This document shows positions 13,169 to 47,228 of a stretch of 64,000 bases of DNA, one piece after another. The DNA is from a phage. Position 1 is the stretch's first letter. Each line of letters begins with the position of its first letter. The DNA is taken from the sequence record PX915676.1; one strand, written 5' to 3'. Position numbers and translations under genes: made by a program. The notes beneath the pieces are model-generated. The model made no database searches. It was given only the letters and a program-made list of their open reading frames with translations, and had not been told where the DNA came from.

Positions 13169-13244
13169 GCGCTCTTAGCTCAATGGATAGAGCAGTAGCC
13201 TTCTAAGCTATTGGTTACAGGTTCGAGTCCTGTAGGGCGCACCA
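13169..13244 (+). tRNA. tRNA-Arg (anticodon TCT)
   Basis: Hand-folded cloverleaf: acceptor GCGCTCT/AGGGCGC, D-stem GCTC/GAGC, anticodon stem GTAGC/GCTAT with loop CTTCTAA, T-arm ACAGG-TTCGAGT-CCTGT, discriminator A and encoded CCA. Confidence 0.85.
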
Positions 13245-27141: not shown

Positions 27142-28932
27142 ATGTCAAAGATCATTTTGGGAGACACAGGTTGTAAGGAATGTATCTCTCATGGTCGTGA
27201 TAAAACCCACAACCACATGATTCTCTTCCGTAACGAAGAGACTGGTGAGGAGTGGGGGAGTTGTAACCGTTGTGGGAATTACGAAGTGTTCGAAAAGGGC
27301 ACTACACCTACTCCAAACGAGAAGAAAGAGTTATCCCCTGAAGAGTTGAGAGAAGTCTTAGATGATTGCTTAGAGCTTCCTCAGGGTGAACTTACTCGCC
27401 GTTTAATCCCTAAAGCTGTATCAGAGCGGTTTGAGTGTCGTATTGGCCTCAGTCAAACTGATGGTCAGACACCAGACAGTTACTTCTTTCCTCGTGAACG
27501 TGATGGAAACATTGTCGGATACGAGGTTAAGCTGCTAGATAGTAAGAAGTTCTATTACGTCGGCAGTGTGAAAGAAGCAGATTTGTTCGGTATGGCACAA
27601 GCTCAACGTGGAGATGTGTACAACAAGAAGCTGTTCATTTTTGAAGACCCGCTATCCTGTATGTCAGGTTTCCATGTCCTTACAGCTTTTACAAATGCAA
27701 CAAATATTAAACCAGCATGTGTTTCTTTACCGTTCGGTGCAGGTTCAATCTCTTCTGTGTTGTCTCGTAACCGAGACTTCGTAAATGGTTTTGAGGAGGT
27801 TGTGCTCTGCATGGACAACGATGATGCAGGTGAGATAGCTTTAACAAAAGGTCGTTCTTTATTCCCTCATGTTAAATTTGCTCGTATTCCTAAAGGAACT
27901 TTCCCATACAACGGTGTGGAGAAAGAGATTAAGGATGCGAATGACATGCTTCTGTCTGGTCGTGGTCAAGAGTTATTCAACATTCTCAAGTATTCAGCAA
28001 AGCGGGAATCTCCTGCTGGTGCTGTAACAATCTTTGATTGTCTTGATGATGCTCTGAAGAAAGCGGAGTGGGGTATCCCGTATCCGTGGAAGACTCTGAA
28101 TGAGATGACCTTCGGTATTCGATGGGGAGAGGTGGTAGCAATTGGTGGTGGAGTAGGGAGTGGTAAAACGCTCATTGCTCACGAGCTGGTTGCTCATCTG
28201 TGCTTAGAGCATGGTTTTAATGGAGGTGGCTTCTTCTTGGAAGAGAAGGTAGGCATGTCTGTTAAGAACATTGCTGGTAAGTCAGCATCAATTCCTTTCC
28301 ACCGACCTGATGTTGAATATGACGAGGAAGATTTGCGTAATGAAGCACTTCGTTATGCAGACAAATTCTTCTTGTATGACAACTTCGGACAGAATGAATG
28401 GGAAGACATTAAACAGTGTATCCGTTTCTGGGTAGTTGAAAACCAGTGTAAGTTCATCATCCTTGATAATATTACCGCTCTGGTATCTCATTTAACACCT
28501 TCAGAGATTAACACTGAAATCAGTAAGATTGCTTCCGAGCTTGCTGGTATGTGTAAAGAATTAGACTTTACCGCTTTCGTGCTATCTCACCTTAATGCTC
28601 CGGCAGGTGGTGCTCCTCATGAAGAAGGTGGGCAGGTACGTGAAGTACAGTTCACTGGCTCTCGTTCTCTTATGCGTTGGTGTCAGTGTATCATTGGCTT
28701 TGAGCGTGATAAGCAAGCTGACGGCTTAGCTAAGAACCTCTCAGTCATTCGATTACTGAAAGAACGTAACTACGGTCAGACAGGTGTCTGTTATACTAAG
28801 TATATCAGCGAAACCGGTAGACTTGTAGAAAGGGAAGACTTTGAAGTTGATGAAGATAATCCATTCGTTTTAACTAACGGAGAGGATGCAGCTTCTCTCG
28901 TCAACCAAGCAGATGGAGCTTCACCGTGGTAA
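27142..28932 (+). CDS. DNA primase/helicase (T7 gp4-like)
   Basis: N-terminal zinc-binding CKEC...CNRCG, TOPRIM-like middle, Walker [10 protein letters not shown] and DnaB-like helicase C-terminus. Confidence 0.9.
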
Positions 28933-29483
28933 AGAAAAAGAAGAAAGTGTTTGCATTCGATATCGAGAGTAATGCACTGTACGATGACATAACTAAAGTA
29001 TGGTGTATTTATATCTTTGATGTTGAAACTGGTGAAAGGTGGGGCTATCGGCCTCACCAAATTGAAGATGGGATTCGTAAACTTACAGAAGCAGATGTAC
29101 TAGTGGGTCATAATATTATTGACTTCGACTTACCTGCTCTGAAAAAGATGTATCCCTCTTTGATTAAATATAATTTTAACGTCTTTGACACTTTATGTCT
29201 TAGTCGATATCTTAAACCTGACCGTATTGGTGACAGTCCTGAGTATCCGAAAGGCGACCCTAGACGTGGCCCAAGAGGTCATGGTTTGAAGCAATGGGGT
29301 GAGTTCTTAGAGGAACTTAAAGGTGACTACGGTGAGCAAGAGGAAGCATGGGATGCTTTCACTGAAGATATGTTTACTTATTGTGAACAGGACGTTAACT
29401 TAACTGTTAAGGTTTATCTTTTCTTGTGTGAACTCACGGGATTTGACCCTTACGACCCACCTTCATTATATTGGAAAATGTAA
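28926..29483 (+). CDS. DNA polymerase I family 3'-5' exonuclease subunit (T7 DNAP N-terminal homolog)
   Basis: Exo I FDIESNAL, Exo [15 protein letters not shown], Exo [11 protein letters not shown] collinear with T7 gene 5 residues 1-185; GTG start with GGAG SD overlapping primase stop. Confidence 0.85.
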
Positions 29484-29484
29484 A

Positions 29485-30798
29485 ATGATTGTTATCCCGA
29501 TTAACCAAATTGAAGATAAGGTTGCTCAACAACCTGATATCACTGTTGGTCGTCACTTCATTGAACAGTTGATTAACAACAACTTGATTCCAGATGGTAT
29601 CTGTCCCATCATTACTGGTGGGGCTGTTCGTGATGCTGTCCTTAATAACATAGCTCCACATGACATTGATATCTTTATTGTCAGAGGACAAACACCAAGA
29701 ACTCAAAACACTTTCATCCCAACTGATCGTTGGCAAGAGCTTGGACGGGAGATTGAAAGTAATGTGAAGGAATGGCTAGAGTCACAAGATATTGAATATG
29801 CATCACTTCTTGCTGAAGCTACAAACGAATCCTATGCTGGGGGTTCTCAATTAACATTCACTGATATTATTGAGTTTCAGTGGAATGGGGTTCGTATCCA
29901 ATTCATGTTTAATTATCCTACTTCTATTGAAGAGGTATTGGATAATTTTCCTATGATGTGCCGTGGTGCGATGACTCTTGACAACTTATTCATGACTTCT
30001 CACGGATATTTGGCTATGACTTCCCCTTGTCCAGTGGTTGTCTCTAGTCGTGAAATCAGGTATGTTCACAAGAAGTGGCCTAACTCACAAGTGTTGAGAT
30101 TTTCCTCTCCAGCAGTTGCGCATCAATACATGGCCCAAACTCGATATCTTCCCACACCTCAGCCAGTTAGTCATCTAGTCAATGGATTAGGTCAGGTTTC
30201 TCTTATTGAAGATACAACAAGTGCTCTATATTGTGTTAACCGAGACATGAGTCGATTCTTTGGAATCCCTTATGAAGAGATTCAGATTATGTCTAGTCTT
30301 CACGGTTCTGGTCAGATTCATGCGTATTGGTCTGAGGGGTTGACAAATTTAACGACTAACACGGGTGGTGATCTGCTTGGTCGAGAAGAGGAACCTAACC
30401 GACACAATGCAATTGAAGGGGTGTTTGTAGCCCCTGCAATGCGTCGAGCACAAGAGTCACGAAGAGAAAGCCCTACTCGTAGAACATCTTTTGAAGAAGC
30501 TCTTGGTATTACAAGTGATTCTATGGAGCGATGGATGGCTAGACCCTCTCGTGGTCGACCAAACGGCTTAACTGTTAGCGCACGTCAGTTCTCTGGTCAG
30601 GGTTTCGCTGTTGGTGATATCAACGCCCCTTCTCGTGTTATCTGGACTGATGAAGGTATGGAACAAGATTTGGGAGATAGTCTCGCTGATCGCTTTATTG
30701 CTAACAACCCTGAAGTATTAGAACCTCAAACCCGTACAGTTCGGTTTGCCGATGAAGCGGGTCGTGGAATCTCTTTTGACATGGAAACAAATAACTAA
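29485..30798 (+). CDS. polymerase beta-superfamily nucleotidyltransferase (CCA-adding/poly(A) polymerase-like head domain)
   Basis: ITGGAVRDAVL...HDIDIF matches GGxVRD and DxD motifs of class II tRNA nucleotidyltransferases; remaining 350 aa unrecognised. Confidence 0.55.
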   Translation: MIVIPINQIEDKVAQQPDITVGRHFIEQLINNNLIPDGICPIITGGAVRDAVLNNIAPHDIDIFIVRGQTPRTQNTFIPTDRWQELGREIESNVKEWLESQDIEYASLLAEATNESYAGGSQLTFTDIIEFQWNGVRIQFMFNYPTSIEEVLDNFPMMCRGAMTLDNLFMTSHGYLAMTSPCPVVVSSREIRYVHKKWPNSQVLRFSSPAVAHQYMAQTRYLPTPQPVSHLVNGLGQVSLIEDTTSALYCVNRDMSRFFGIPYEEIQIMSSLHGSGQIHAYWSEGLTNLTTNTGGDLLGREEEPNRHNAIEGVFVAPAMRRAQESRRESPTRRTSFEEALGITSDSMERWMARPSRGRPNGLTVSARQFSGQGFAVGDINAPSRVIWTDEGMEQDLGDSLADRFIANNPEVLEPQTRTVRFADEAGRGISFDMETNN

Positions 30799-30807
30799 GG
30801 AATAAGA

Positions 30808-31341
30808 ATGAGTTTACTAGGAAGTATTGAACTGCATGATGTAATTGACAATGGCTATCTGGATGCGGAGCATAAGTATGTTAACGCTGCTAGTGTGGAT
30901 ATCCGTATTGGTGATACTATCCTTGTTGAAGAACAGGCTGATGGCATCGTTGATATTGATGCGAAAGAGAATCTTCAGTGGAAGGAAGTAAAGATTCCTG
31001 AAGAGGGTTTGGTTATCACTCCGGGTCAGTTCTTCTTGGCTCACTCTATGGAGGAGTTTAACCTTCCAGATAACATCTCAAGTCTGTTTGTTCTGCGTTC
31101 GTCTATGGCTCGTTGTGGTTTGAACCACCTTCACGCCGGTTGGGCAGATGCAGGATTTAATAGCAGTAAGCTGACATTTGAATTCCATAACGTAACCAAG
31201 CACCACAGCTTACGAGTTCGTGCTGGTATGCGTGTTGGTCAGATGGTTATGTTTGAGCACTCTCATGCAGGGGAACACTCCTATGCAGTGAAGGGTCGTT
31301 ATAATAACTCTGAAGGTGTGGTTGCATCTAAAGGTGTGTAA
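30808..31341 (+). CDS. dCTP deaminase family protein
   Basis: ASVDIRIGD and AGWADAGFNSSKLTFEFHN resemble dCTP deaminase/dUTPase motifs. Confidence 0.75.
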   Translation: MSLLGSIELHDVIDNGYLDAEHKYVNAASVDIRIGDTILVEEQADGIVDIDAKENLQWKEVKIPEEGLVITPGQFFLAHSMEEFNLPDNISSLFVLRSSMARCGLNHLHAGWADAGFNSSKLTFEFHNVTKHHSLRVRAGMRVGQMVMFEHSHAGEHSYAVKGRYNNSEGVVASKGV

Positions 31342-31539
31342 ATGAAAAAGTGGATTGTTCGTGTACATGATAACACGACTGGAGAGTTAGTAGCTGTAGA
31401 TTTTGTTAAGACTCGAGAACACGCACGTAGGGTCAAAAATCAATACAAGTCTACTTTTAGACTTAACAAGGTTACAATTGGAAAAGCTATTGTGAATAGC
31501 GAAGGTGCTTTTATTGCCAACAGTAAGGTTTATTATTAA
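31342..31539 (+). CDS. small protein, tandem paralog 1 of 3 (C-terminal KVYY)
   Basis: Track ORF; shares W-rich N-terminus, TRE(H/E)AR motif and SKV.YY end with next two ORFs. Confidence 0.55.
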   Translation: MKKWIVRVHDNTTGELVAVDFVKTREHARRVKNQYKSTFRLNKVTIGKAIVNSEGAFIANSKVYY

Positions 31540-31748
31540 TGAGACCGATCACTATGAGACAATTTTGGTTAGCAAAGATTAAGTGGGTATCAGGTGGCAT
31601 GACTATGACTGCACTACCCACTCGCCAACAAGCTCGAGATTTTAAAAAGACTATGCTTACTGGTGACGTGGTCAATAGTATCAGTATCCATAAGGCCAAG
31701 GAATATTCCTCTGGTCGTGTTTATATCAGCGGAAAGGTACACTACTAA
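31539..31748 (+). CDS. small protein, tandem paralog 2 of 3
   Basis: Track ORF; same pattern (ends KVHY). Confidence 0.55.
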   Translation: MRPITMRQFWLAKIKWVSGGMTMTALPTRQQARDFKKTMLTGDVVNSISIHKAKEYSSGRVYISGKVHY

Positions 31749-31957
31749 TGAAAAAGATGTGGGCTATTAGAATTGTTTGGGAACGTGAGCAACACCTAGG
31801 CAAAGATAATATCAAACTGTTTGAAACTCGTGAAGAGGCTCGTATTGCTAAGAAGGAGTTGAAGACTCTGATCGGAACTATTAAAAGTGTTGACATTCAT
31901 CGCTGGTACGAAGACCCTAGCTCGGGTTCTTTTATGTCTAAAGTAATTTATTACTGA
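31748..31957 (+). CDS. small protein, tandem paralog 3 of 3
   Basis: Track ORF; same pattern (ends KVIYY). Confidence 0.55.
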   Translation: MKKMWAIRIVWEREQHLGKDNIKLFETREEARIAKKELKTLIGTIKSVDIHRWYEDPSSGSFMSKVIYY

Positions 31958-32029
31958 TTGGTAGTAGATATGGTAACTCTCAAATGTATATAGAGTACAA
32001 TAAGAATTTGTATTTTACAGGAGAGAGTT

Positions 32030-32359
32030 ATGTTAGATTTGAGTAAAGTGGCCCCGCCCACTGAAGAGATTACAAAATCCAAGGTGATGCAACAGTTTTA
32101 TCATCGTGATATGCTTGGTCGCTTTATCAAGAATCGTGATGTTGTTGCTTGGTCTATTGGTAATCAGGGATATCTGTTGAAGGTTCTTCAGGTTACAGGT
32201 TCAACTGCTAAGCGAGTTAAGGTGTATGACCCTGAAATGGGGCGTTCTAAGTCAGTAGACCCACAGAACTGCATCGTAATTACCCAGCAGGTAATGGATA
32301 ATATTGCACGTAATGTTGCTAACTCAGTTGAACTTGATGGAGAAAACCCAAATGCATAA
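32030..32359 (+). CDS. hypothetical protein
   Basis: Track ORF 109 aa. Confidence 0.55.
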   Translation: MLDLSKVAPPTEEITKSKVMQQFYHRDMLGRFIKNRDVVAWSIGNQGYLLKVLQVTGSTAKRVKVYDPEMGRSKSVDPQNCIVITQQVMDNIARNVANSVELDGENPNA

Positions 32360-32915
32360 GAATGTCTTTGATTTACCTGAGATTGGTCGTGACAGTTATA
32401 GTATGTTAGACCGGTCCGACCTATCAATCTCTCGCCTTGAAACGATGCAAGGTATGATTAGTGGAAACAGCCTAGAACACATCCTGAGCTGCTTACAAGC
32501 TAACATGGAACTCTTGCATATCAAAGCTAAAAACTACCACTGGAACGTCTCTGGTGCAGGATTTCAGGGTGTTCATGGTATGTTTGATGAGCTGGAAGAT
32601 TACGCACGACAGGTAGGAGATCGTATTGCTGAACGTATGCGTTACCACTGTGTTAAAGTGGATGCTACAGCAGCTAACTACCTCTCTCATTCTTGGTTCT
32701 CAGAGGGTAATGCTGATCTAGACATGGACGGTATGCTCTCTGATATGTGCATGACCTTGATGTGTATTATTGAGAAGATGGATGAGTTTGATGGTGATTT
32801 AGCCACCTACCCTGTCGATCAGAGTATGCTTCAAGAAATTAATGAAGGTCTTGGCAAGTATTGCTACTTCGTCAAGAGCAACATGTCCCATTCAAGTGGT
32901 GACGTGTCTTACTAA
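32352..32915 (+). CDS. Dps-like ferritin-fold protein
   Basis: Track ORF trimmed to ATG 32352 with GGAG SD; LHIKAKNYHWNVSGAGFQGVHGMFDELEDYARQVGDRIAER matches the Dps ferroxidase-site helix pattern. Confidence 0.65.
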   Translation: MHKNVFDLPEIGRDSYSMLDRSDLSISRLETMQGMISGNSLEHILSCLQANMELLHIKAKNYHWNVSGAGFQGVHGMFDELEDYARQVGDRIAERMRYHCVKVDATAANYLSHSWFSEGNADLDMDGMLSDMCMTLMCIIEKMDEFDGDLATYPVDQSMLQEINEGLGKYCYFVKSNMSHSSGDVSY

Positions 32916-32976
32916 AAACCTCCGCCCTGTCTCCTAACCCGAGGTGGGGCGAACTTATTTATAAGGATATAGATAT

Positions 32977-33156
32977 ATGTTATCAGCAATCGTATGGGGT
33001 ATTTGGGCTATCTTTATTGGTGGTGGTATTTATTGGGCTTCTGGTAAGCTTATTGAAGAAACTCCTGATAAGAAAGGTGAGATTCAAACAGCATCAACCA
33101 TCATGGTTATCGTAGCTGTTGTTATCCCATTCCTGCTTCACCTCCTGACTGCATAA
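32977..33156 (+). CDS. small membrane protein (59 aa, two hydrophobic segments)
   Basis: ATG with AAGGA SD; below track cut-off. Confidence 0.4.
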   Translation: MLSAIVWGIWAIFIGGGIYWASGKLIEETPDKKGEIQTASTIMVIVAVVIPFLLHLLTA

Positions 33157-33164
33157 GGATTTAC

Positions 33165-33440
33165 ATGTCTAAAGTAATTAAGTTTTATAGTGATCAGTGT
33201 GCTCCATGTAAAGCAATGGCTCCTACCTTTGAGAAGGTTGTTAAGGAGTTTGATGTAGAAGTGGAAGAGATTAACATCCTTGAAGGTGATGGTCGTGAAC
33301 AAGCTGTTAAGTATGGTATACGAAGCATCCCTGCTTTTGTTGTGCCTGACCGTAACAGTGGTGCACACTACAGCCTCTCCGGTATGCAGACTGAAGCAAA
33401 CCTGAAAGCATTTTTGGACACAGCCCTGAGAAATAAGTAA
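33165..33440 (+). CDS. thioredoxin/glutaredoxin-fold protein (CxxC)
   Basis: Track ORF; active-site-like CAPC near N-terminus, about 90 aa. Confidence 0.7.
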   Translation: MSKVIKFYSDQCAPCKAMAPTFEKVVKEFDVEVEEINILEGDGREQAVKYGIRSIPAFVVPDRNSGAHYSLSGMQTEANLKAFLDTALRNK

Positions 33441-33455
33441 TAAGGATATTCACGG

Positions 33456-34112
33456 ATGAATGAACAACTACAAGCAACATTAATCGAAGCTATGGGAAGT
33501 GATCGTAGCGTAGTAAACGCAGCTCGAGTTTCCTTTGGCGTAACCCGTGAAGGTGATTTAAATGAACGTGATGAACGTCTCATCAACTTCCTCGCACGGG
33601 AAAAACACTGTACCCCATTCCGACACCCGCAAGTCAGCTTCCGATGCAAAGCACCTATTGCAATTGCGAGACAGCTGGGCAAGCATCAGGTTGGATTCTC
33701 GTGGAACGAAATGTCCCGGCGGTATAAAGATGGAGCAGTTGAAGTCTTCATCCCTAAAGAGATTTTTGCGAGACCTTCGGACCTCCATGCAGGTTCAGGG
33801 ATTCAACTCATCGACGGAGAGCGAGCTGAAGCATTAATGCTGATTAACGATGCATATGAAGCTTCTCTAGCAGCATATGACAAGTTGATTGAATTTATTG
33901 CACCAGAGCAAGCTCGATTTGTTCTTCCTCAGGGGATGATCACTGAGTGGGTGTGGACCGGTTCTTTGTATGGCTGGTTTGAGTTGTGTCGTCAGCGACT
34001 CTCCTCTCACGCTCAATATGAAGTTCGAGTGTTTGCTAAATCTGTAGACGAAGAGATGGCTAAGATCTACCCAATCTCGTGGGCAGCCCTGAAGAAAACT
34101 TTGGAGAGTTAA
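33456..34112 (+). CDS. thyX: flavin-dependent thymidylate synthase ThyX (variant motif)
   Basis: AARVSF, TPFRHPQVSFRCKAPIAIARQ, SWNEMSRRY and SHAQYEV match ThyX blocks; canonical RHR triad reads KHQ here. Confidence 0.8.
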   Translation: MNEQLQATLIEAMGSDRSVVNAARVSFGVTREGDLNERDERLINFLAREKHCTPFRHPQVSFRCKAPIAIARQLGKHQVGFSWNEMSRRYKDGAVEVFIPKEIFARPSDLHAGSGIQLIDGERAEALMLINDAYEASLAAYDKLIEFIAPEQARFVLPQGMITEWVWTGSLYGWFELCRQRLSSHAQYEVRVFAKSVDEEMAKIYPISWAALKKTLES

Positions 34113-34261
34113 TATTGGAAGAAGATGATGATGATGTGTTCTGCACCAAGTGCGGAATGACAGTGGATGATGCATATGACCCAAGTGTAGAAATTTGTCC
34201 ATGTTGCGGGGTATGTGAGTATTGCTGTTCTCATAATCCAGAGGATTAGCAGGAATTTCTG

Positions 34262-34495
34262 ATGAAAATCAAACATATTACAGATATTCAGGAGGCATTT
34301 AGGATGCTTCCTCGAAGAGAGAAGGATAAGATTAAAAAGCTTATTCAAGTTTATGGTCATACATCTAAAGATGATGTAGACTATATGCCTTCTACTTTCG
34401 TAGAGTGTGGGATTGCTCGCGGTTTCACATTCGACCATAAAGTGTTTCAGCAATTCGTTGACCACTGGAGAAAAGATGGAAAAGAAAGTCTGTAG
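34262..34495 (+). CDS. hypothetical protein
   Basis: Track ORF 77 aa; ends with TAG. Confidence 0.5.
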   Translation: MKIKHITDIQEAFRMLPRREKDKIKKLIQVYGHTSKDDVDYMPSTFVECGIARGFTFDHKVFQQFVDHWRKDGKESL

Positions 34496-34661
34496 CTTCT
34501 GTAAGAAAGAGAAACCTATCGCCAACTTCAAACCTAACCCTGTAACTGGTCTGACCCATGTCATGTGCCACTCTTGCAGGATATATCTTGAAACAAAGCA
34601 CACTATCAATAGGTTGCACTATTATCACCCAACAACATTCAAATTTAAGGTTGTGAAATGA
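34476..34661 (+). CDS. small zinc-ribbon protein
   Basis: Track ORF trimmed to ATG 34476; CSFC...CHSC. Confidence 0.45.
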   Translation: MEKKVCSFCKKEKPIANFKPNPVTGLTHVMCHSCRIYLETKHTINRLHYYHPTTFKFKVVK

Positions 34662-34981
34662 TTGACAGTAATACATTTAGGACTTCAAATGGAAGTGAAA
34701 TAAGTCCCGCTGAAGTAATCAATCGGCATAGAAGGCAATTGATCATCCATTCCTACTTGTATTACTGGTTGGATGACCCTATCTGGTCTGATGATAAATG
34801 GCAACAAGTTGCTAATGATCTAGCGGAGCTGCAAGCTCTGTATCCAGAACCTACTGGAGTCTTTGACAACGAGTTTAAAGATTGGGATGGTTCTACAGGT
34901 ATGCATCTCCCACATAACGAAGCTGTTGCTTGTATGGCGACAGCTGTTTACAGACTTCATAAAGAGGTTAACGTCGCATGA
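34658..34981 (+). CDS. hypothetical protein
   Basis: Track ORF 107 aa. Confidence 0.55.
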   Translation: MIDSNTFRTSNGSEISPAEVINRHRRQLIIHSYLYYWLDDPIWSDDKWQQVANDLAELQALYPEPTGVFDNEFKDWDGSTGMHLPHNEAVACMATAVYRLHKEVNVA

Positions 34982-35178
34982 GCGTAGTTTATGTTCTAGA
35001 AAGATACGCTGAAGATCACAGCAGTATTGTTGCCATATTTAAATATGCCCCGGATGTTGAGGATATTTTGAATGTGACTCACTTAACTGATGTTGATAAA
35101 ATCAAAGACCTCATCAGGAATGACAATGCCCACATAGGTGACTCTCTGTGGTCTCTTACTGAATGGACATTGTGGTGA
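34978..35178 (+). CDS. hypothetical protein
   Basis: Track ORF 66 aa. Confidence 0.5.
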   Translation: MSVVYVLERYAEDHSSIVAIFKYAPDVEDILNVTHLTDVDKIKDLIRNDNAHIGDSLWSLTEWTLW

Positions 35179-35360
35179 AGTGCTCTAAATGTGAAGGAAC
35201 AAACCTTCATTTAAGTAACAAGGTTATCAGAGAGCTTGCTAAAGGCTCTCCAACCAAAGGGAAGAACAAACGATTTACTAACGTCAGGGTTTATACAGCA
35301 ATCTGTAAAGACTGCTTAACTACTGAGTGTCATTACGAAGAAATTGGAGAGCGTAAATGA
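35163..35360 (+). CDS. small zinc-ribbon protein
   Basis: Track ORF; CSKC...CKDC. Confidence 0.5.
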   Translation: MDIVVKCSKCEGTNLHLSNKVIRELAKGSPTKGKNKRFTNVRVYTAICKDCLTTECHYEEIGERK

Positions 35361-36094
35361 GTCGTCGTCAATCACGGAAAGAATCACGGAAAGACCTTCG
35401 TCGGGAAGCACTTGTTACTCGTAAAGGTAAGCGAGAGTATGAAGAGGTTATTTTAGCAAAGCCTGTAGTCCCTCAGAACCAGTTTCAGTCTGAGCTACTC
35501 AATGCTATTAAGACTAAACAAGTTGTGTTCACAGACGCTCCTGCGGGCTGTGGTAAGACCTTTGTAATCACTTCCACGGTTATCGATGCACTGAAGAGTG
35601 GTAAGATTCAGAAGATCATTCTGAGTCGCCCTTCGGTTGGCATGGGAAACTCTCTTGGGTTACTTCCGGGAGGAATGCGTGAGAAGTTTGAACCTTACCT
35701 GATGCCTATCATTGATGTTATTACTCAGCGATATGGTAAGGGATTCTATGAATGCCAAATCGGAAATGGTAACATTGAATTTGTACCTCTGGAATATCTC
35801 CGTGGTCGTTCTTTCAATGATGCTATTGTTATTGTTGATGAGTTCCAGAACACCACTAAAGATGAAGCCTTCTCGATCATGACTCGATTGGGAGAAACCT
35901 CTCAGCTGTTCTGCATGGGCGATACTAACCAGCATGATATGCGTGGTCGTGAGAGTGGTCTTACTTGGGCTACTAACTTTATTGATGAACATGATCTGTA
36001 TGAGTTTGCTGAGATTGTAGATGGTGAATCAGATGATATTGTTCGTTCTGGTTTCTGTAAGGCGATTGTTAAAGCAATGGAAAAGAAAGCTTAA
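35357..36094 (+). CDS. phoH: PhoH-like ATPase
   Basis: Walker A DAPAGCGKTF and Walker B VIVDEFQN as in PhoH family. Confidence 0.85.
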   Translation: MSRRQSRKESRKDLRREALVTRKGKREYEEVILAKPVVPQNQFQSELLNAIKTKQVVFTDAPAGCGKTFVITSTVIDALKSGKIQKIILSRPSVGMGNSLGLLPGGMREKFEPYLMPIIDVITQRYGKGFYECQIGNGNIEFVPLEYLRGRSFNDAIVIVDEFQNTTKDEAFSIMTRLGETSQLFCMGDTNQHDMRGRESGLTWATNFIDEHDLYEFAEIVDGESDDIVRSGFCKAIVKAMEKKA

Positions 36095-36105
36095 ACAGTA
36101 ACTTA

Positions 36106-36114
36106 TAATGTATA
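36106..36114 (+). promoter_or_regulatory. TAATGTATA motif (candidate phage sigma-dependent promoter element)
   Basis: Exact 9-mer about 37 nt upstream of ATG 36151; same 9-mer at 43133 (+) and 52851-52859 (-), each upstream of a gene start. Confidence 0.45.
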
Positions 36115-36150
36115 CTCCTTAGTGTACACTGATATATTAAGGAGTTTTAA

Positions 36151-36465
36151 ATGGCAGATCATGTAGGAAAGAGAGATTATGCACAAGAAAGACGTACCGC
36201 AATTGCCCGTGGTGAGACAGGCGTTGGGAGCAAGAGCGGAGATGCTCAGCGCCACCGTGCACGTCGCATCGTTGAAAAGCGCGATGGAAAAGCTGCTGTC
36301 AGAGGTAAAGATGTTGGACACAAACGAGCTGTCAAGTCTGGAGGCTCTAATGCGTCAAGCAACTTACGTGTTGAATCAGTCAGCTCAAACCGTTCAAACG
36401 GCGGCAAAAGTGGTGATCGAGCTGGAAAAGCAGCTGGAGCACGCAAAGGAGCTTTAAGCTCATAA
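36151..36465 (+). CDS. highly basic Gly/Ser/Lys/Arg-rich protein
   Basis: Track ORF; AAGGAG SD; G-first/T-third codon periodicity favours this frame over overlapping ORF 36179-36457. Confidence 0.5.
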   Translation: MADHVGKRDYAQERRTAIARGETGVGSKSGDAQRHRARRIVEKRDGKAAVRGKDVGHKRAVKSGGSNASSNLRVESVSSNRSNGGKSGDRAGKAAGARKGALSS

Positions 36466-36475
36466 AGAGGTTATA

Positions 36476-36769
36476 GTGTCAGCAGAAACAAAAAGATGTA
36501 CAATTCACACTTATTGTAAATTCTGTAAAGCAGAGGGTGTAAAAAGAGTTGCAACTTTAATGACCAAGTATTCTCCAAGTAGAGGATATAGGGACCACTA
36601 TAAGCACTACTCTTGTAGTGATCACTCCCATCTATTAGAAGATACAGACCCGAATAGAACAAGGAGAGAGCATAACATCGACCTGAGAGCCACTCTCAAG
36701 GAAATGAAAAACAACTCTCGAAACAATCATTACACTGAAGCTGACTATCAAACTTGGCTTCGTCTATAG
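36476..36769 (+). CDS. hypothetical Cys/His-rich protein
   Basis: Track ORF; GTG start with AGAGG SD. Confidence 0.5.
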   Translation: MSAETKRCTIHTYCKFCKAEGVKRVATLMTKYSPSRGYRDHYKHYSCSDHSHLLEDTDPNRTRREHNIDLRATLKEMKNNSRNNHYTEADYQTWLRL

Positions 36770-36775
36770 AACAAA

Positions 36776-36804
36776 GGCTGCCTAATCGGGTGGCCTTTTC
36801 TTTT
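36776..36804 (+). terminator. intrinsic terminator
   Basis: GGCTGCC-TAATCG-GGTGGCC hairpin + TTTTCTTTT. Confidence 0.7.
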
Positions 36805-36839
36805 ATATAAACCAAATTAAAACTTCTTAGGTAATAAAT

Positions 36840-37094
36840 ATGTCTATTGTAAAAATCGTAAATATTTTTGATGTAACCAGAGATGGCAAGATTGTTAAGT
36901 GGACTTTCACTAACCACCACAACAAATCAAACAAGATCATCGAACGGATGATTGAGATTAACCCAAAAACAGCTCGCACTAATGTAATCCTTCGTGGTGC
37001 TGATGGTAAATTCATTTCTTATAAAAACAAAGACGTAGAAAAATCTTTCCGTGTTGCAGTAGAAAATCTCATCCCATTCCCTAAAGGAGTTTAA
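36840..37094 (+). CDS. hypothetical protein, paralog pair member 1
   Basis: Track ORF; C-terminal KTARTNVILRGADGKFISY...PFPKG shared with next ORF. Confidence 0.55.
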   Translation: MSIVKIVNIFDVTRDGKIVKWTFTNHHNKSNKIIERMIEINPKTARTNVILRGADGKFISYKNKDVEKSFRVAVENLIPFPKGV

Positions 37095-37095
37095 T

Positions 37096-37380
37096 ATGAA
37101 TAAGTTAGCTATGGTTCAAATTCGGGACACATACCCTAACCGCCCGGAGCAGAAACCGCGTACTTGGTCTTATCTGTTGGCTGAAAGTAAGACTATTGAC
37201 AAATACGCTGTAGGGGTTGATGCTATTCCAACTAGTATCACATTGCTCCCTCACAAAACAGCCAGAACCCATGTGATGTTACGTGATAGCAAAGGTAAGT
37301 TTATCTCTTATCGTGATTCACGAATCAATAATGAGATTAAATCTGCTATGGAATTTTTGATGCCATTCCCAAAAGGTTGA
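37096..37380 (+). CDS. hypothetical protein, paralog pair member 2
   Basis: Track ORF; KTARTHVMLRDSKGKFISY...PFPKG. Confidence 0.55.
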   Translation: MNKLAMVQIRDTYPNRPEQKPRTWSYLLAESKTIDKYAVGVDAIPTSITLLPHKTARTHVMLRDSKGKFISYRDSRINNEIKSAMEFLMPFPKG

Positions 37381-37383
37381 GTA

Positions 37384-37542
37384 ATGAAAGAATATATTTA
37401 CGTAGGACAGCGCTGGTTCGGTGATGAATGGGAAGGTGGTTACAGCGTTGTGAAAGCTTTTAAGTCTGAAGAAGATGCCAAGTCATGGGTCTTAAAAGAT
37501 GACGTCGGTGAGAGAACTTACATTGAAGTAGAGGTGGAGTAG
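37384..37542 (+). CDS. small ORF (52 aa)
   Basis: ATG with AAAGG SD; below track cut-off. Confidence 0.4.
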   Translation: MKEYIYVGQRWFGDEWEGGYSVVKAFKSEEDAKSWVLKDDVGERTYIEVEVE

Positions 37543-37543
37543 G

Positions 37544-37966
37544 ATGCCATTACCAGCTAGACACCAAAACCGTTTCTTAGTTCTCAAGTGGGATGATATC
37601 GAAATGAATCTCACTGAACATGAACTAGATTTGTTCCATGAATTATTATCAGAGATTCGCTCTGGTATTCCTGAACGTCAGTATGTGGTTATCAGTGATA
37701 AACACCCTCAAGAGTTTGAAGAAGCTTGGGGTATGAAGCTGGCCTACATTCAGAGAGCTATTAGAGAAAGAGAAGAAGTTGCTAATCAGAGGGTTGTGGC
37801 TCATCTGGTACGAGAACAGCCTCGTGAAGCCAGAGCTACACATACACCACCTCCGCCCCCTCCTTGGACAGTTGTCAACGGGACAGTTAGGGCTTATAGT
37901 GATGAAGCAACCATGCTGAATGTAGTAGAAGATAACCAAGCATTTACAGATTTACTTTACCAATAA
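37544..37966 (+). CDS. hypothetical protein (contains PPPPPPW)
   Basis: Track ORF; GAGGTGGAG SD. Confidence 0.6.
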   Translation: MPLPARHQNRFLVLKWDDIEMNLTEHELDLFHELLSEIRSGIPERQYVVISDKHPQEFEEAWGMKLAYIQRAIREREEVANQRVVAHLVREQPREARATHTPPPPPPWTVVNGTVRAYSDEATMLNVVEDNQAFTDLLYQ

Positions 37967-37982
37967 TTTAAAGGAGTATAAA

Positions 37983-39827
37983 GTGAGCAACCCGGACGCT
38001 CTTCCATTTTTGACAGAGATGACTGTCGCTGATATAATCTCTAAGCAAGCAAAGCACGGAGTGAGTTTCAACCGAAGAAATGCTCGGTGGTATGTTCACC
38101 TCCTTAAAGAGATTATTGTTAATATTGACAGAGAGTTGATTCCTCTCTTACCTAAGATGAGATTAGACGGCTCTACTTATATGAAGCCGTTTAAGAAGTC
38201 TGGAGCTTTGCAGAAATGGCCTCAAGCTTATTGTGATAGGGTTGGGCTGAAGAGAGAAGACATTGGCGGAGCTTTCACCTGTGTCGAATACGTAGACTTT
38301 GACCCATCGAAAGATGCACGAGTTAAAGAAGCTCTTATGGATGAGGGCTTTCTTCCTCCAGAGTTTAACGTATCTAAGAAGCCTTGGAATACTTTCGAAA
38401 TTAAGAAAGATATGAGAAAGTATGGAACATACCAAGCATGGTATACTGCTTGGATGCGAGGCAATGCTAAGCAAAAGCAGACAGCCGAGATGGTTGACGC
38501 TGATATTAAGAAGTTCTTAGAAAAGCATTTCAGGTTTAAGACTAAGAATTACATGAAGGCTTACGTATTTGGTTTGGGGTTGAACCCTAATCGCCGTAAT
38601 CCTGTAACGTTTGATGAGATTAAGAAAGCGCTAGCCACATCAAACAAGTGGCCTACAGCTCCTACAAATCTCGAGGAGACTCTCGAAGAAGGGTTAGGAG
38701 GTGAGCTAGGGAGTGTCGGAAGTTTGCTTAAGAGACGCGTTGTAGCAGCTCACAGGCTAGGTCTTATCAATGGACTCATAGCAAAGGAACGCGAAGATGG
38801 TAAACTTTCGGCAGAAGCTAACAGCTGCGCTACGCCGACTTTTCGATTCAAACATCGTATCGTGGTTAATATTCCCTCCCGTGGTTTGTTTGGTCACGAG
38901 TGTCGCAGTTTGTTTGAGTCTGACTATAACTCAGACAGTGATCATTCTCGTCCTTTCATTATTACTAACGTTGTTCCTGATGGTTGTTATATACGAAAAG
39001 GTACTAACGTAATTTACGAGAAGGGTAAGCCGGGGAAGAAAGACAAACCTGTAGGTGCTTACAAATATTACATACCCGCTGGTAAAGAAGTATTCTTAGG
39101 GTATGATGGTTCTGGGCTTGAACTTCGCATGCTCGCTCACTACCTCATTAAAGAGTGTAGGGACATGCTTGCTGAAGCAATAGAAGAGAATAATCCAGCT
39201 AAGAAAGCTCTGGCAGAACGTGGTTTAGCTTCTGCTATTATGTATCGTGACATCCTCCTTGAAGGGGATATCCACTCCCACAACCAGAAACTTGCTGGTC
39301 TTCCTACTCGTGACAACGCTAAGACCTTTATCTACGCATTCAACTATGGTGCTGGTGATGCTAAGCTCGGTTCAATTGTAGGTGGTGGGGCTGACGAAGG
39401 TTCAGTGATGCGAGCACGTTTCTTAGCAGAGAACCCATGTATTGCAATCCTCATTGATCGTATGACAGAGAAAGCTGCTCAAGGATACTTGATTGGTGTC
39501 GATGGTCGTAAGATTACAATGAGACGGGATGCCACTGGTAAGGTTATGGTTCATAAAGCCCTTAACACACTCCTGCAATGTGCTGGTGCTGTTGTTATGA
39601 AATATGCTATGATGTTCCTTAACAAGTGGATTGAGAAAGATAAGGTTCGTTGTGCTAAGGTAATTGATATGCACGATGAAGGTCAATTCTCAGTAAACCG
39701 TAATGATGTACAGAAACTCAAAGAGCACACTGAGCTTTGTGTTAAGAAAGCTGGCGAGTATCTGAACATGGAATGTCCTCTGGCATCTGATTGTCAGATT
39801 GGACTTAACTGGATGCATACACACTAA
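37983..39827 (+). CDS. DNA polymerase I family polymerase subunit (T7 DNAP C-terminal homolog)
   Basis: GYDGSGLELRMLAHY, PTRDNAKTFIYAFNYGAGDAKLG (motif B), MHDEGQF (motif C), collinear with T7 gene 5 from about residue 190; GTG start with AAAGGAG SD. Confidence 0.9.
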   Translation: MSNPDALPFLTEMTVADIISKQAKHGVSFNRRNARWYVHLLKEIIVNIDRELIPLLPKMRLDGSTYMKPFKKSGALQKWPQAYCDRVGLKREDIGGAFTCVEYVDFDPSKDARVKEALMDEGFLPPEFNVSKKPWNTFEIKKDMRKYGTYQAWYTAWMRGNAKQKQTAEMVDADIKKFLEKHFRFKTKNYMKAYVFGLGLNPNRRNPVTFDEIKKALATSNKWPTAPTNLEETLEEGLGGELGSVGSLLKRRVVAAHRLGLINGLIAKEREDGKLSAEANSCATPTFRFKHRIVVNIPSRGLFGHECRSLFESDYNSDSDHSRPFIITNVVPDGCYIRKGTNVIYEKGKPGKKDKPVGAYKYYIPAGKEVFLGYDGSGLELRMLAHYLIKECRDMLAEAIEENNPAKKALAERGLASAIMYRDILLEGDIHSHNQKLAGLPTRDNAKTFIYAFNYGAGDAKLGSIVGGGADEGSVMRARFLAENPCIAILIDRMTEKAAQGYLIGVDGRKITMRRDATGKVMVHKALNTLLQCAGAVVMKYAMMFLNKWIEKDKVRCAKVIDMHDEGQFSVNRNDVQKLKEHTELCVKKAGEYLNMECPLASDCQIGLNWMHTH

Positions 39828-45533: not shown

Positions 45534-46423
45534 GTGAAGAGGTAAAAGCTTTAAAGAAAGCTCTTGCAATTAAAATCAAACATTTAAATTTCGTCAGAGA
45601 TGAGTTGGAGGAGCTATCCAACTTATCAGGGTATGAATTACAGAATGAACTTGTAGAGTTTCAAATCAATGTTGATGGCGGTAGATACGTAGAAACAACT
45701 AGAGCGATTTTACCTAAAGTTACTGGTAACAAAACTTCTCCAGTAGATTACTCACATGACCACACGGAGCAATTAGAAATGGAATCTCAAGGCAATCCAG
45801 CACTGACCAATATGGTGGGAGATTCCCACTATAAGCCTTTAGTAGTAATTCTTAATGGGCCTCCGGGTTGTGGTAAAGATACGATAGCCAATGCTTGGGT
45901 CAATGCCCATTCATACCACCACGGATATTCAACCAAATCCTTCAAGGAGCCAATGTACAGAGTAGCTGCTGCTGCACTAGGAATACCTCTAGAAAATTTT
46001 CTAGCACGCTATGAAGATCGTGAATGGAAAGAAAAACCTAGACCAGAATGGGGAGGGAAGTCTGTAAGAGATTTGATGATTTCTACAAGTGAAGACTTCT
46101 TAAAACCTATGTTTGGCAACAATCATATGGGGAATCTTGCTGTAAAAAGTATCAAACAAGAAGGGCTAGGTCAGGATGATATTGTCGTGTTTACTGACGG
46201 AGGTTTTGATGCAGAGGTACGAGAACTAGAAAAGAATTTCCATGTCCAAGTTGTCCAAGTTCTTAGAGATGGTTGCTCTTTTGATGGAGACTCTCGTTCA
46301 TATATTGAAGGCGAACAGAGAAAAACATATCTACTGTTTAATGACTCAACCATCGAATCAGCAGTCTCAGATCTAGATTGGATTATTGCTCAAGCTCAGG
46401 ATGATATTTATGGAAGAAGTTAA
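45530..46423 (+). CDS. P-loop kinase, deoxynucleoside monophosphate kinase-like
   Basis: Track ORF trimmed to ATG 45530; P-loop LNGPPGCGKDT as in T4 gp1-type dNMP kinases, with N-terminal extension. Confidence 0.5.
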
Positions 46424-47228
46424 GCTCCCTGAAGTTGCTATAGTGGATGCTGACGTTCTTCGATATGAAGTGGGTGCTCTTACTCAGGAGCATCCCTTTC
46501 TTGACACAGGACGTGTTCCAGTTGATTACAATTTCATGATTGAACGACTTCAGTACAAGATTGATACTATCATTGCTCGCTCAGGTTGTAATAAGGTTGT
46601 ATTCTACTTCAGCGAAGGTGGTAACTTCCGTTTCGATGTTGCCAAGCAACAAGGTTACAAAGCAAACAGACCTCCAGGAGAAAGACCTTTTCACTGGCAA
46701 AACGTTGGCGATTACATTAAAGGTAAGTACGAATATATTGATGTATTTGGAAGAGAGGCTGATGACGCTCTAGCTGAGAGACAGCGTAGAGATAAGAACA
46801 CTATCATCTGTACCAGAGACAAAGATTTATTAATAACCCCCGGATGGCACTATCGTTGGGCCTGTGGAGAGAAACAAAGAGAAGTACCTCCTCATTATGT
46901 ATCTGACTTGGTATCATGGCAAAACTTCTTCTATCAAATGTTGATTGGGGATGGGACAGATAACATTCCCGGATGCGGTGAACGTAAAGAAGTTATGTGG
47001 GGCGGTAAGCTCCAGCTACGACGTCAAGGTGTCGGGAAGAAAGCAGCAGCTAGTCTGTTGGCTGGTGTTACAGATAAGTGGACCATGTATCATATAGTAC
47101 GAATGGAGTATTATAAGAAGTTCGATACTGAAGATGAAGAGAAGATGCTCGAGAATGCTCGGCTTCTTTTTGTTGGTCAGACTCCGGAAGACCTGTTCGA
47201 CTGGACATGGTTAGATAAATCTTGGTAA
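46410..47228 (+). CDS. 5'-3' exonuclease / flap endonuclease (FEN family)
   Basis: Acidic clusters DADVLRY, EADD, TRDKDLL and H3TH motif IGDGTDNIPG; start could also be ATG 46401. Confidence 0.8.
   Translation: MEEVKLPEVAIVDADVLRYEVGALTQEHPFLDTGRVPVDYNFMIERLQYKIDTIIARSGCNKVVFYFSEGGNFRFDVAKQQGYKANRPPGERPFHWQNVGDYIKGKYEYIDVFGREADDALAERQRRDKNTIICTRDKDLLITPGWHYRWACGEKQREVPPHYVSDLVSWQNFFYQMLIGDGTDNIPGCGERKEVMWGGKLQLRRQGVGKKAAASLLAGVTDKWTMYHIVRMEYYKKFDTEDEEKMLENARLLFVGQTPEDLFDWTWLDKSW

Follow-up and report, generated by a model that had tools for sequence, protein, structure and literature searches.

The window analysed here, the whole 64,000-nucleotide stretch of phage DNA recorded as PX915676.1, belongs to a Kuravirus (phiEco32-like, Gordonclarkvirinae), a podophage of E. 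coli. The + strand carries its early and middle genes as far as ~48 kb, beyond which the virion genes follow on the − strand, and between positions 20000 and 44000 its DNA is ~97% identical to several deposited Kuravirus genomes over 99% of that segment's length. Within this segment lie the two genes of concern: one for a 3'-5' proofreading exonuclease subunit of 185 amino acids (28926..29483, +; hereafter exo), a homologue of phiEco32 phi32_74 equivalent to T7 gp5 residues ~1–196, and one for an exonuclease-less family A DNA polymerase (PolA) subunit of 614 amino acids (37983..39827, +; hereafter pol), a homologue of phiEco32 phi32_53 equivalent to T7 gp5 residues 197–704. Both orthology and synteny with the two annotated phiEco32 genes were found to hold. 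An original prediction, made from the sequence alone, had placed the two open reading frames (ORFs) at exactly these coordinates and had read them as a T7-like family A polymerase split into separate exonuclease and polymerase genes 8.5 kb apart, a reading that the examination of both ORFs and their joint tiling of T7 gp5 confirmed. The split is not new, having already been annotated and published for the phiEco32 group.

The exo gene starts with a GTG codon at 28926, preceded by GGAG 8 nt upstream, and this start codon overlaps the stop codon of the primase/helicase gene in front of it (28930–28932; …CCG TGG TAA, a GTGGTAA overlap). In a tblastn search of a phage collection, the exo protein was 97.8–99.5% identical to its counterparts in phiEco32, SU10, MN03, FS2B, ShigP1, and many other Escherichia and Shigella podophages. 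It matched the Pfam family DNA_pol_A_exo1 (PF01612; E = 2e-08, 34.7 bits against a curated cut-off of 23.6) and, weakly, RNase_H_2. When PDB sequences were searched with phmmer, T7 gp5 was the sole match at E ≤ 1 (E = 1e-11, exo 10–160 to gp5 3–178), and BLASTP aligned exo 12–181 with gp5 5–196 at 33% identity (E = 7e-18), with the collinearity running on through the inter-domain linker (YDPP versus YFPP). A multiple alignment in which the exo and pol concatenation was set beside T7 gp5 and six relatives that are naturally fused (597–634 amino acids) placed the complete set of DEDDy residues of exo, D12, E14, D68, Y152, and D156, opposite T7 D5, E7, D65, Y170, and D174, the motifs following one another as Exo I (DxE, D12/E14), Exo II (Nx2-3(F/Y)D, N63...D68), and Exo III (Yx3D, Y152...D156). 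Among 44 aligned stand-alone exo homologues, reaching down to 31% identity, D12, E14, D68, and D156 were invariant and Y152 was at least 90% conserved. The alignment, BLASTP, and phmmer results alike bear out the proposal that the Exo I/II/III motifs are collinear with the N-terminus of T7 gene 5.

Structure comparison led to the same relative. An AlphaFold2 model of exo, computed from an alignment of its homologues (predicted local distance difference test score, pLDDT, 94.8; predicted template modelling score, pTM, 0.90), was compared with PDB structures using Foldseek, and ranks 1–27 were all occupied by T7 gp5 chains (E = 9e-11 to 5e-9, 27–31% identity). The next matches, to the exonuclease of a family B polymerase (PolB), TREX1, DpoZ, and ExoI, were four orders of magnitude weaker (E ≥ 1.6e-5, 11–17% identity). 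These results bear directly on an alternative that the original prediction had itself raised, namely that the 185-residue ORF is an unrelated DnaQ/epsilon-type (DEDDh) exonuclease residing in the replication module, the polymerase being simply exonuclease-less. Such a reading could appeal to the small, stand-alone nature of this DEDD nuclease and to its weak RNase_H_2 match. We give it practically no credence: besides the 10^4 gap in E-values among the fold matches and the gp5-type linker, no epsilon/DnaQ match to exo was found among PDB sequences at E ≤ 1, where gp5 stood alone, and Exo III has the form Yx3D, not Hx4D. In addition, tblastn with exo retrieved 1,938 phage records, in which the matches listed for T7-like and other podophages fall under annotated DNA polymerase genes.

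The pol gene likewise starts with GTG (37983), with AAGGAG 6 nt upstream, and its product is 99% identical to the DNA polymerase of Shigella phage SGF2. Residues 361–611 match Pfam DNA_pol_A (PF00476; E = 2.2e-23, 83.3 bits against a curated cut-off of 34.3). T7 gp5 was again the top match among PDB sequences (E = 2e-32), followed by the Klenow fragment and Bst polymerase at 1e-06 and weaker, and BLASTP aligned pol 192–614 with gp5 318–704 (E = 1e-37). All three polymerase motifs are intact: motif A (DxSxxE; D375/E380, equivalent to T7 D475/E480), motif B (Rx3Kx3Y; R443/K447/Y451, equivalent to T7 R518/K522/Y526), and motif C (HDE; H564-D565-E566, equivalent to T7 H653-D654-E655). This agrees with the prediction that the ORF carries the palm and fingers motifs from about T7 residue 190 onward, the first residue of pol aligning with T7 D197. 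The AlphaFold2 model, also based on a homologue alignment (pLDDT 92.3, pTM 0.81), shows the right-hand fold of thumb, palm, and fingers and retrieved T7 gp5 chains at ranks 1–27 (E = 1.7e-26 to 9e-20), with Bst, Taq, and Klenow structures appearing from 4e-16.

Relative to the fused homologues and T7 gp5, pol contains three clade-specific insertions, at residues ~133–243, 327–370, and 392–420, all of which are confidently modelled. The first is a helical module of ~110 residues in the thumb, which differs from the T7 thumb insertion and is larger; the second is beta-rich and lies just before motif A, and the third is helical and lies just after it. BLASTP also aligned T7 318–373 with pol 192–240 and T7 293–373 with pol 72–145, a pattern that hints at an internal duplication of a thumb-base element.

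In the multiple alignment, the last residue of exo, M185, is paired with T7 I196 and the first of pol, M1, with D197, so that the break coincides with the boundary between the exonuclease and polymerase domains. Joined end to end, exo and pol cover the fused relatives with neither loss nor overlap at this boundary; the concatenation is 43–47% identical to these relatives, with no gap at the junction, and 31% identical to T7 gp5. Exo has a 14-residue C-terminal extension when compared with the fused relatives. The two halves are separated by 8,499 bases (29484–37982) holding ~22–23 non-overlapping + strand ORFs; in phiEco32, 20 annotated genes, phi32_73 to phi32_54, occupy the same interval, in agreement with the figure of about 20 intervening genes given at the outset.

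We also considered whether the split could be unreal at the protein level, whether through an error of assembly or sequencing, a pseudogene created by a frameshift, or an intron or intein by which a single chain would be restored through splicing. Events of these kinds do occur nearby in sequence space, as pol genes of close relatives carry a group I intron (102 bits in relative L008; LUZ24 gp34/gp36) and gene 5 of Synechococcus phage S-CBP42 has a frameshift-type break. Nevertheless, the probability of this explanation is vanishingly small. The same two-gene layout recurs in dozens of genomes sequenced independently, each half is equipped with a Shine-Dalgarno sequence and start codon of its own, and the genes between them are conserved and independently annotated. 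Rfam at gathering thresholds reported only a tRNA-Arg in the whole window and thus no intron at the split, and exo and pol tile the fused homologues without surplus residues, which leaves no space for an intein. Artefact, frameshift, intron, and intein were accordingly rejected alongside the DnaQ-type reading, given the gp5-type match, the seamless tiling, the ~20 genes in between, and the recurrence across genomes. The split is therefore a true gene fission, and the view that it is of neither frameshift nor intron scale was upheld.

The fission extends beyond the genus. In a metagenome-scale protein set, 65/65 exo homologues, down to 34% identity, were stand-alone proteins of 101–247 amino acids. 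Nearly all listed pol homologues, down to ~35% identity, lacked an exonuclease domain, including the LUZ24-type 'DNA polymerase part II', and fused relatives appeared only near the bottom of the homologue list; in the alignment, only 6/105 sequences bore an N-terminal exonuclease extension. The gene order helicase, exo (overlapping the helicase stop), cargo, and pol is kept in phiEco32, in LUZ24, and in two metagenomic contigs, L004 (exo 51% identical) and L005 (exo 54% identical). What varies is the distance between the halves, which is 2.3 kb with eight genes in LUZ24, 8.3 kb with Dcd, ThyX, and NrdD/G in L004, and >10 kb in L005; this space acts as a site that houses a variable cargo of nucleotide-metabolism genes. 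Because both the gene order and the stand-alone halves are conserved across these genera, the exo/pol fission appears, on comparative grounds, to be older than their divergence.

The six fused relatives (P0174, P0176, P0180, P0181, P0182, and P0185), all metagenomic, are closer to the Kuravirus halves than T7 gp5 is. In a neighbour-joining tree of the 105 pol homologues and the window protein, rooted either at the midpoint or on T7, they formed one clade inside the exonuclease-less sequences; the deep branches of this tree were very short (0.006–0.034), and the T7 branch was long (0.40). Such nesting would be compatible with one ancient fission, with repeated fission, or with re-fusion.

Further interruptions were seen in the polymerase genes of relatives. 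In L008 (5354–5617; also in L009; pol 89% identical), a group I intron without an ORF (Rfam RF00028, 102 bits, E = 2.6e-27) interrupts the pol gene after about codon 454, and the called products are 454 and 139 amino acids long. The pol gene of the window carries no such intron, the tRNA being the sole Rfam match. Several pol homologues of 437–460 amino acids, including that of Aeromonas phage BUCT695, cover 72–74% of the query, which suggests that this interruption is widespread. In S-CBP42 (L010 2959–4772; NC_029031 39863–41676), the gene 5 region has no annotated coding sequence and is interrupted between the Exo II and Exo III motifs of the exonuclease domain by an apparent frameshift, which may be an S-SBP1-type fission or a sequencing error, the second ORF (480 amino acids) comprising Exo III and the whole polymerase. 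This phage was considered as a second example of a split at the domain boundary and was rejected, the break lying inside the exonuclease domain.

The block between exo and pol (29485..37966, +; ~22 same-strand genes) combines nucleotide metabolism genes with many small ORFs. Its identifiable products include a nucleotidyltransferase, a dCTP deaminase, a Dps/ferritin-like protein, a thioredoxin, ThyX, a stand-alone Ia domain of a nicotinamide adenine dinucleotide (NAD)-dependent ligase, and PhoH. The thioredoxin (33165..33440, +; 91 amino acids; Pfam Thioredoxin, E = 2.7e-13) may be a processivity partner of the polymerase, a hypothesis already in print for the relative Privateer (PMC7881722), and may replace the host thioredoxin. 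It is conserved in the metagenomic relative L005, and the proteomics passages on purified SU10 virions report detection of both thioredoxin and polymerase (PMC4281155).

Other small genes of this block deserve brief mention. The ORF at 34658–34981 (+) encodes a 107-residue protein that comprises nothing but domain Ia, the NAD+-binding part of NAD-dependent DNA ligases (Pfam Nlig-Ia, E = 3.7e-35). In phiEco32 the corresponding gene bears the annotation 'DNA ligase', and YF01 has been reported with an 'NAD-dependent DNA ligase'; the protein is too short for a ligase, so the 'DNA ligase' label probably claims too much, and its target may instead be host LigA or NAD. Two sets of small tandem paralogues were also observed: three adjacent ORFs of 65–69 amino acids at 31342–31957 (+), the second and third of which are 29% identical (E = 2e-06), and adjacent ORFs of 84 and 94 amino acids at 36840–37380 (+), which are 31% identical (E = 4e-15) and share the C-terminal motif KTART..LR...GKFISY......PFPKG.

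Beyond the two halves and the block between them, the replication genes of the window include the T7 gp4-like primase/helicase upstream of exo (27142..28932, +; 596 amino acids), identified by Pfam DnaB_C and a weak Toprim_2 match. Its C-terminus (28840–28932) is an acidic tail whose last residue is aromatic, reminiscent of T7 gp4, in which the acidic C-terminal tail ends in Phe and contacts gp5. A FEN-like 5'-3' exonuclease (46410..47228, +; 272 amino acids) is encoded 6.6 kb downstream of pol; its match to Pfam 5_3_exonuc_N (E = 1.3e-05) is below the curated cut-off, and its length, position, and annotation mark it as the counterpart of phiEco32 phi32_33, which is described there as 'similar to exonuclease domain of DNA polymerase I'. 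A gene of its own thus also exists for the third of the Pol I-type activities, as is the case in T7 with gene 6, and a separately encoded 5'-3' exonuclease has been described in YF01 too (PMC9965538). The window contains a single tRNA gene, tRNA-Arg (anticodon TCT; 13169–13244, +), called by both ARAGORN and Rfam (72 bits).

Taken together, exo and pol are the two halves of a T7-type replicative polymerase that was split by an ancient fission, and we consider it probable that they reassemble non-covalently as a two-subunit proofreading replicase. The cut in the ancestral family A polymerase gene fell exactly where the exonuclease domain meets the polymerase domain, at the point equivalent to the step from residue 196 to residue 197 of T7 gp5. 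The half with the exonuclease would have stayed at the ancestral site directly behind the primase/helicase gene, its start overlapping the helicase stop, while nucleotide-metabolism and small accessory genes would have accumulated between it and the polymerase half, now 8.5 kb downstream. The 185-residue exo would dock non-covalently on the 614-residue pol, at the surface used by the fused domain in T7 gp5, and the primer end would move between the polymerase and exonuclease sites of the resulting two-subunit enzyme.

Both catalytic sites are intact by sequence, and both genes lie within the middle (replication) cluster, replication genes being assigned to the middle expression cluster (PMC8948821). 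A physical exo–pol complex, with proofreading in cis, is the most likely arrangement because the break falls at the domain boundary without loss, the two genes are co-inherited across a wide clade, and a precedent exists in the split T7-type PolA of S-SBP1-like phages, whose two parts, modelled with AlphaFold2 as a binary complex, superpose on the fused enzyme of Syn5 (PMC10201439). Several observations weigh against it. Exo and pol do not lie side by side, and translational coupling ties exo to the helicase gene instead of to pol, a layout that would also fit an exonuclease travelling with the helicase or acting in trans. Furthermore, the SU10 proteomics passages list the polymerase and thioredoxin and not the exonuclease subunit, the sample being purified virions (PMC4281155). 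The literature searched yielded no biochemical study of the separate exo and pol subunits.

The conserved coupling of exo to the helicase gene lends some weight to a different arrangement, possible though on the whole doubtful, in which exo is the cognate gp5-derived domain but has ceased to form a stable complex with pol, and acts in trans, free or tethered to the helicase, as a proofreader or repair nuclease that trims the mismatched 3' ends let go by the exonuclease-less pol. The exo start overlaps the primase/helicase stop, not the pol gene, in four lineages, and the two genes lie 2.3 to >10 kb apart; in addition, exo has acquired its 14-residue C-terminal extension and pol its large insertions, so the ancestral interface may have changed. 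Set against this, the break and the domain boundary coincide exactly, no part of the enzyme is missing, and co-inheritance of both genes holds across a wide clade. The stability of family A polymerases reportedly depends on the exonuclease domain, and reassembly is predicted for the other known split T7-type PolA (PMC10201439).

A more specific version, to which we attach only a slim chance, is that exo is made in step with the primase/helicase, as its start overlaps the helicase stop in every lineage examined, and serves as a replisome-tethered proofreader in trans, with the pol insertion at 133–243 docking either exo or the phage thioredoxin. If true, the T7-type replicase of these phages would consist of three or four proteins, and its editing subunit would be exchangeable.

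Of the two options that the original prediction fairly posed, assembly of the enzyme from two polypeptides or a free proofreading subunit, we favour the first. In either case, these phages represent a natural experiment in which a family A replicase has operated with its proofreading activity on a separate polypeptide over long evolution, the genes being up to 10 kb apart. The Kuravirus and LUZ24 pairs could show whether an editing subunit that is exchangeable suffices for a working PolA, how subunit stoichiometry tunes fidelity, and whether the phage thioredoxin takes over from that of the host as processivity factor. The analysis adds little as a discovery; the remaining interest lies in the biochemistry of the subunits, the distance between the genes, and the age of the split.

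The closest known system is phiEco32 itself, in which RefSeq describes phi32_74 as 'DNA polymerase exonuclease subunit; contains 3'-5' exonuclease domain' and phi32_53 as 'DNA polymerase; lacks 5'-3' and 3'-5' exonuclease domains'. The genes are the same, with exo 97.8% identical, the primase/helicase upstream, and the nucleotidyltransferase and dCTP deaminase downstream, whereas the gap in the window has a few extra small ORFs, e.g. at 34262–34661 and 35163–35360. The separation has been called 'common to all group members', with 7-11, Privateer, Vp_R1, and BUCT695 also listed (PMC9965538), and it has been noted for the LUZ24 group in a study crediting the phiEco32 case to Savalia et al. 2008 (PMC3517423). 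In that group (Bruynoghevirus), gp25, a 'DNA polymerase exonuclease subunit', likewise overlaps the primase/helicase stop and is followed downstream by an exonuclease-less polymerase; an upstream module of amidoligase, aminotransferase, RimK-like, and GGACT genes is shared, and the polymerases are ~38–42% identical. LUZ24 differs in the short gap of eight genes, in a polymerase gene (gp34/gp36, 'DNA polymerase part II') that is additionally interrupted by an intron, and in a shorter polymerase (~545 amino acids) that cannot hold all of the Kuravirus insertions.

S-SBP1-like cyanopodoviruses also encode a T7-like PolA with the 3'-5' exonuclease and polymerase as separate products predicted to reassemble (Czernecki et al. 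2023, PMC10201439). Their genes, however, are adjacent and overlapping, the result of a recent +1 frameshift, whereas the Kuravirus genes lie 8.5 kb apart in a split that is old and common to several genera. Neither phiEco32 nor LUZ24 nor Kuravirus is mentioned in that paper, and it seems that the polymerase-structure literature has overlooked the older and more extreme Kuravirus-type split, the only split PolA structurally analysed so far being the recent, adjacent-gene S-SBP1-like type.

With T7 gene 5, the Kuravirus pair shares the fold, the catalytic residues of both domains, the Tyr at the Y526 position, an upstream gp4-type primase/helicase, and a separate 5'-3' exonuclease. T7 gp5 is, however, a single chain of 704 amino acids that uses host thioredoxin via its thumb insertion, whereas the Kuravirus enzyme comprises two chains, with a phage-encoded thioredoxin and extra thumb and palm insertions. 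Separate proofreading subunits and split polymerases are also found in other polymerase families. In E. coli DNA polymerase III, a separate proofreading subunit, epsilon, assembles with the alpha polymerase subunit, epsilon being a DEDDh enzyme of the DnaQ type and the polymerase belonging to another family, and family B polymerases, again a family other than that of gp5, are split in some archaea and T4-like phages, where the halves assemble.

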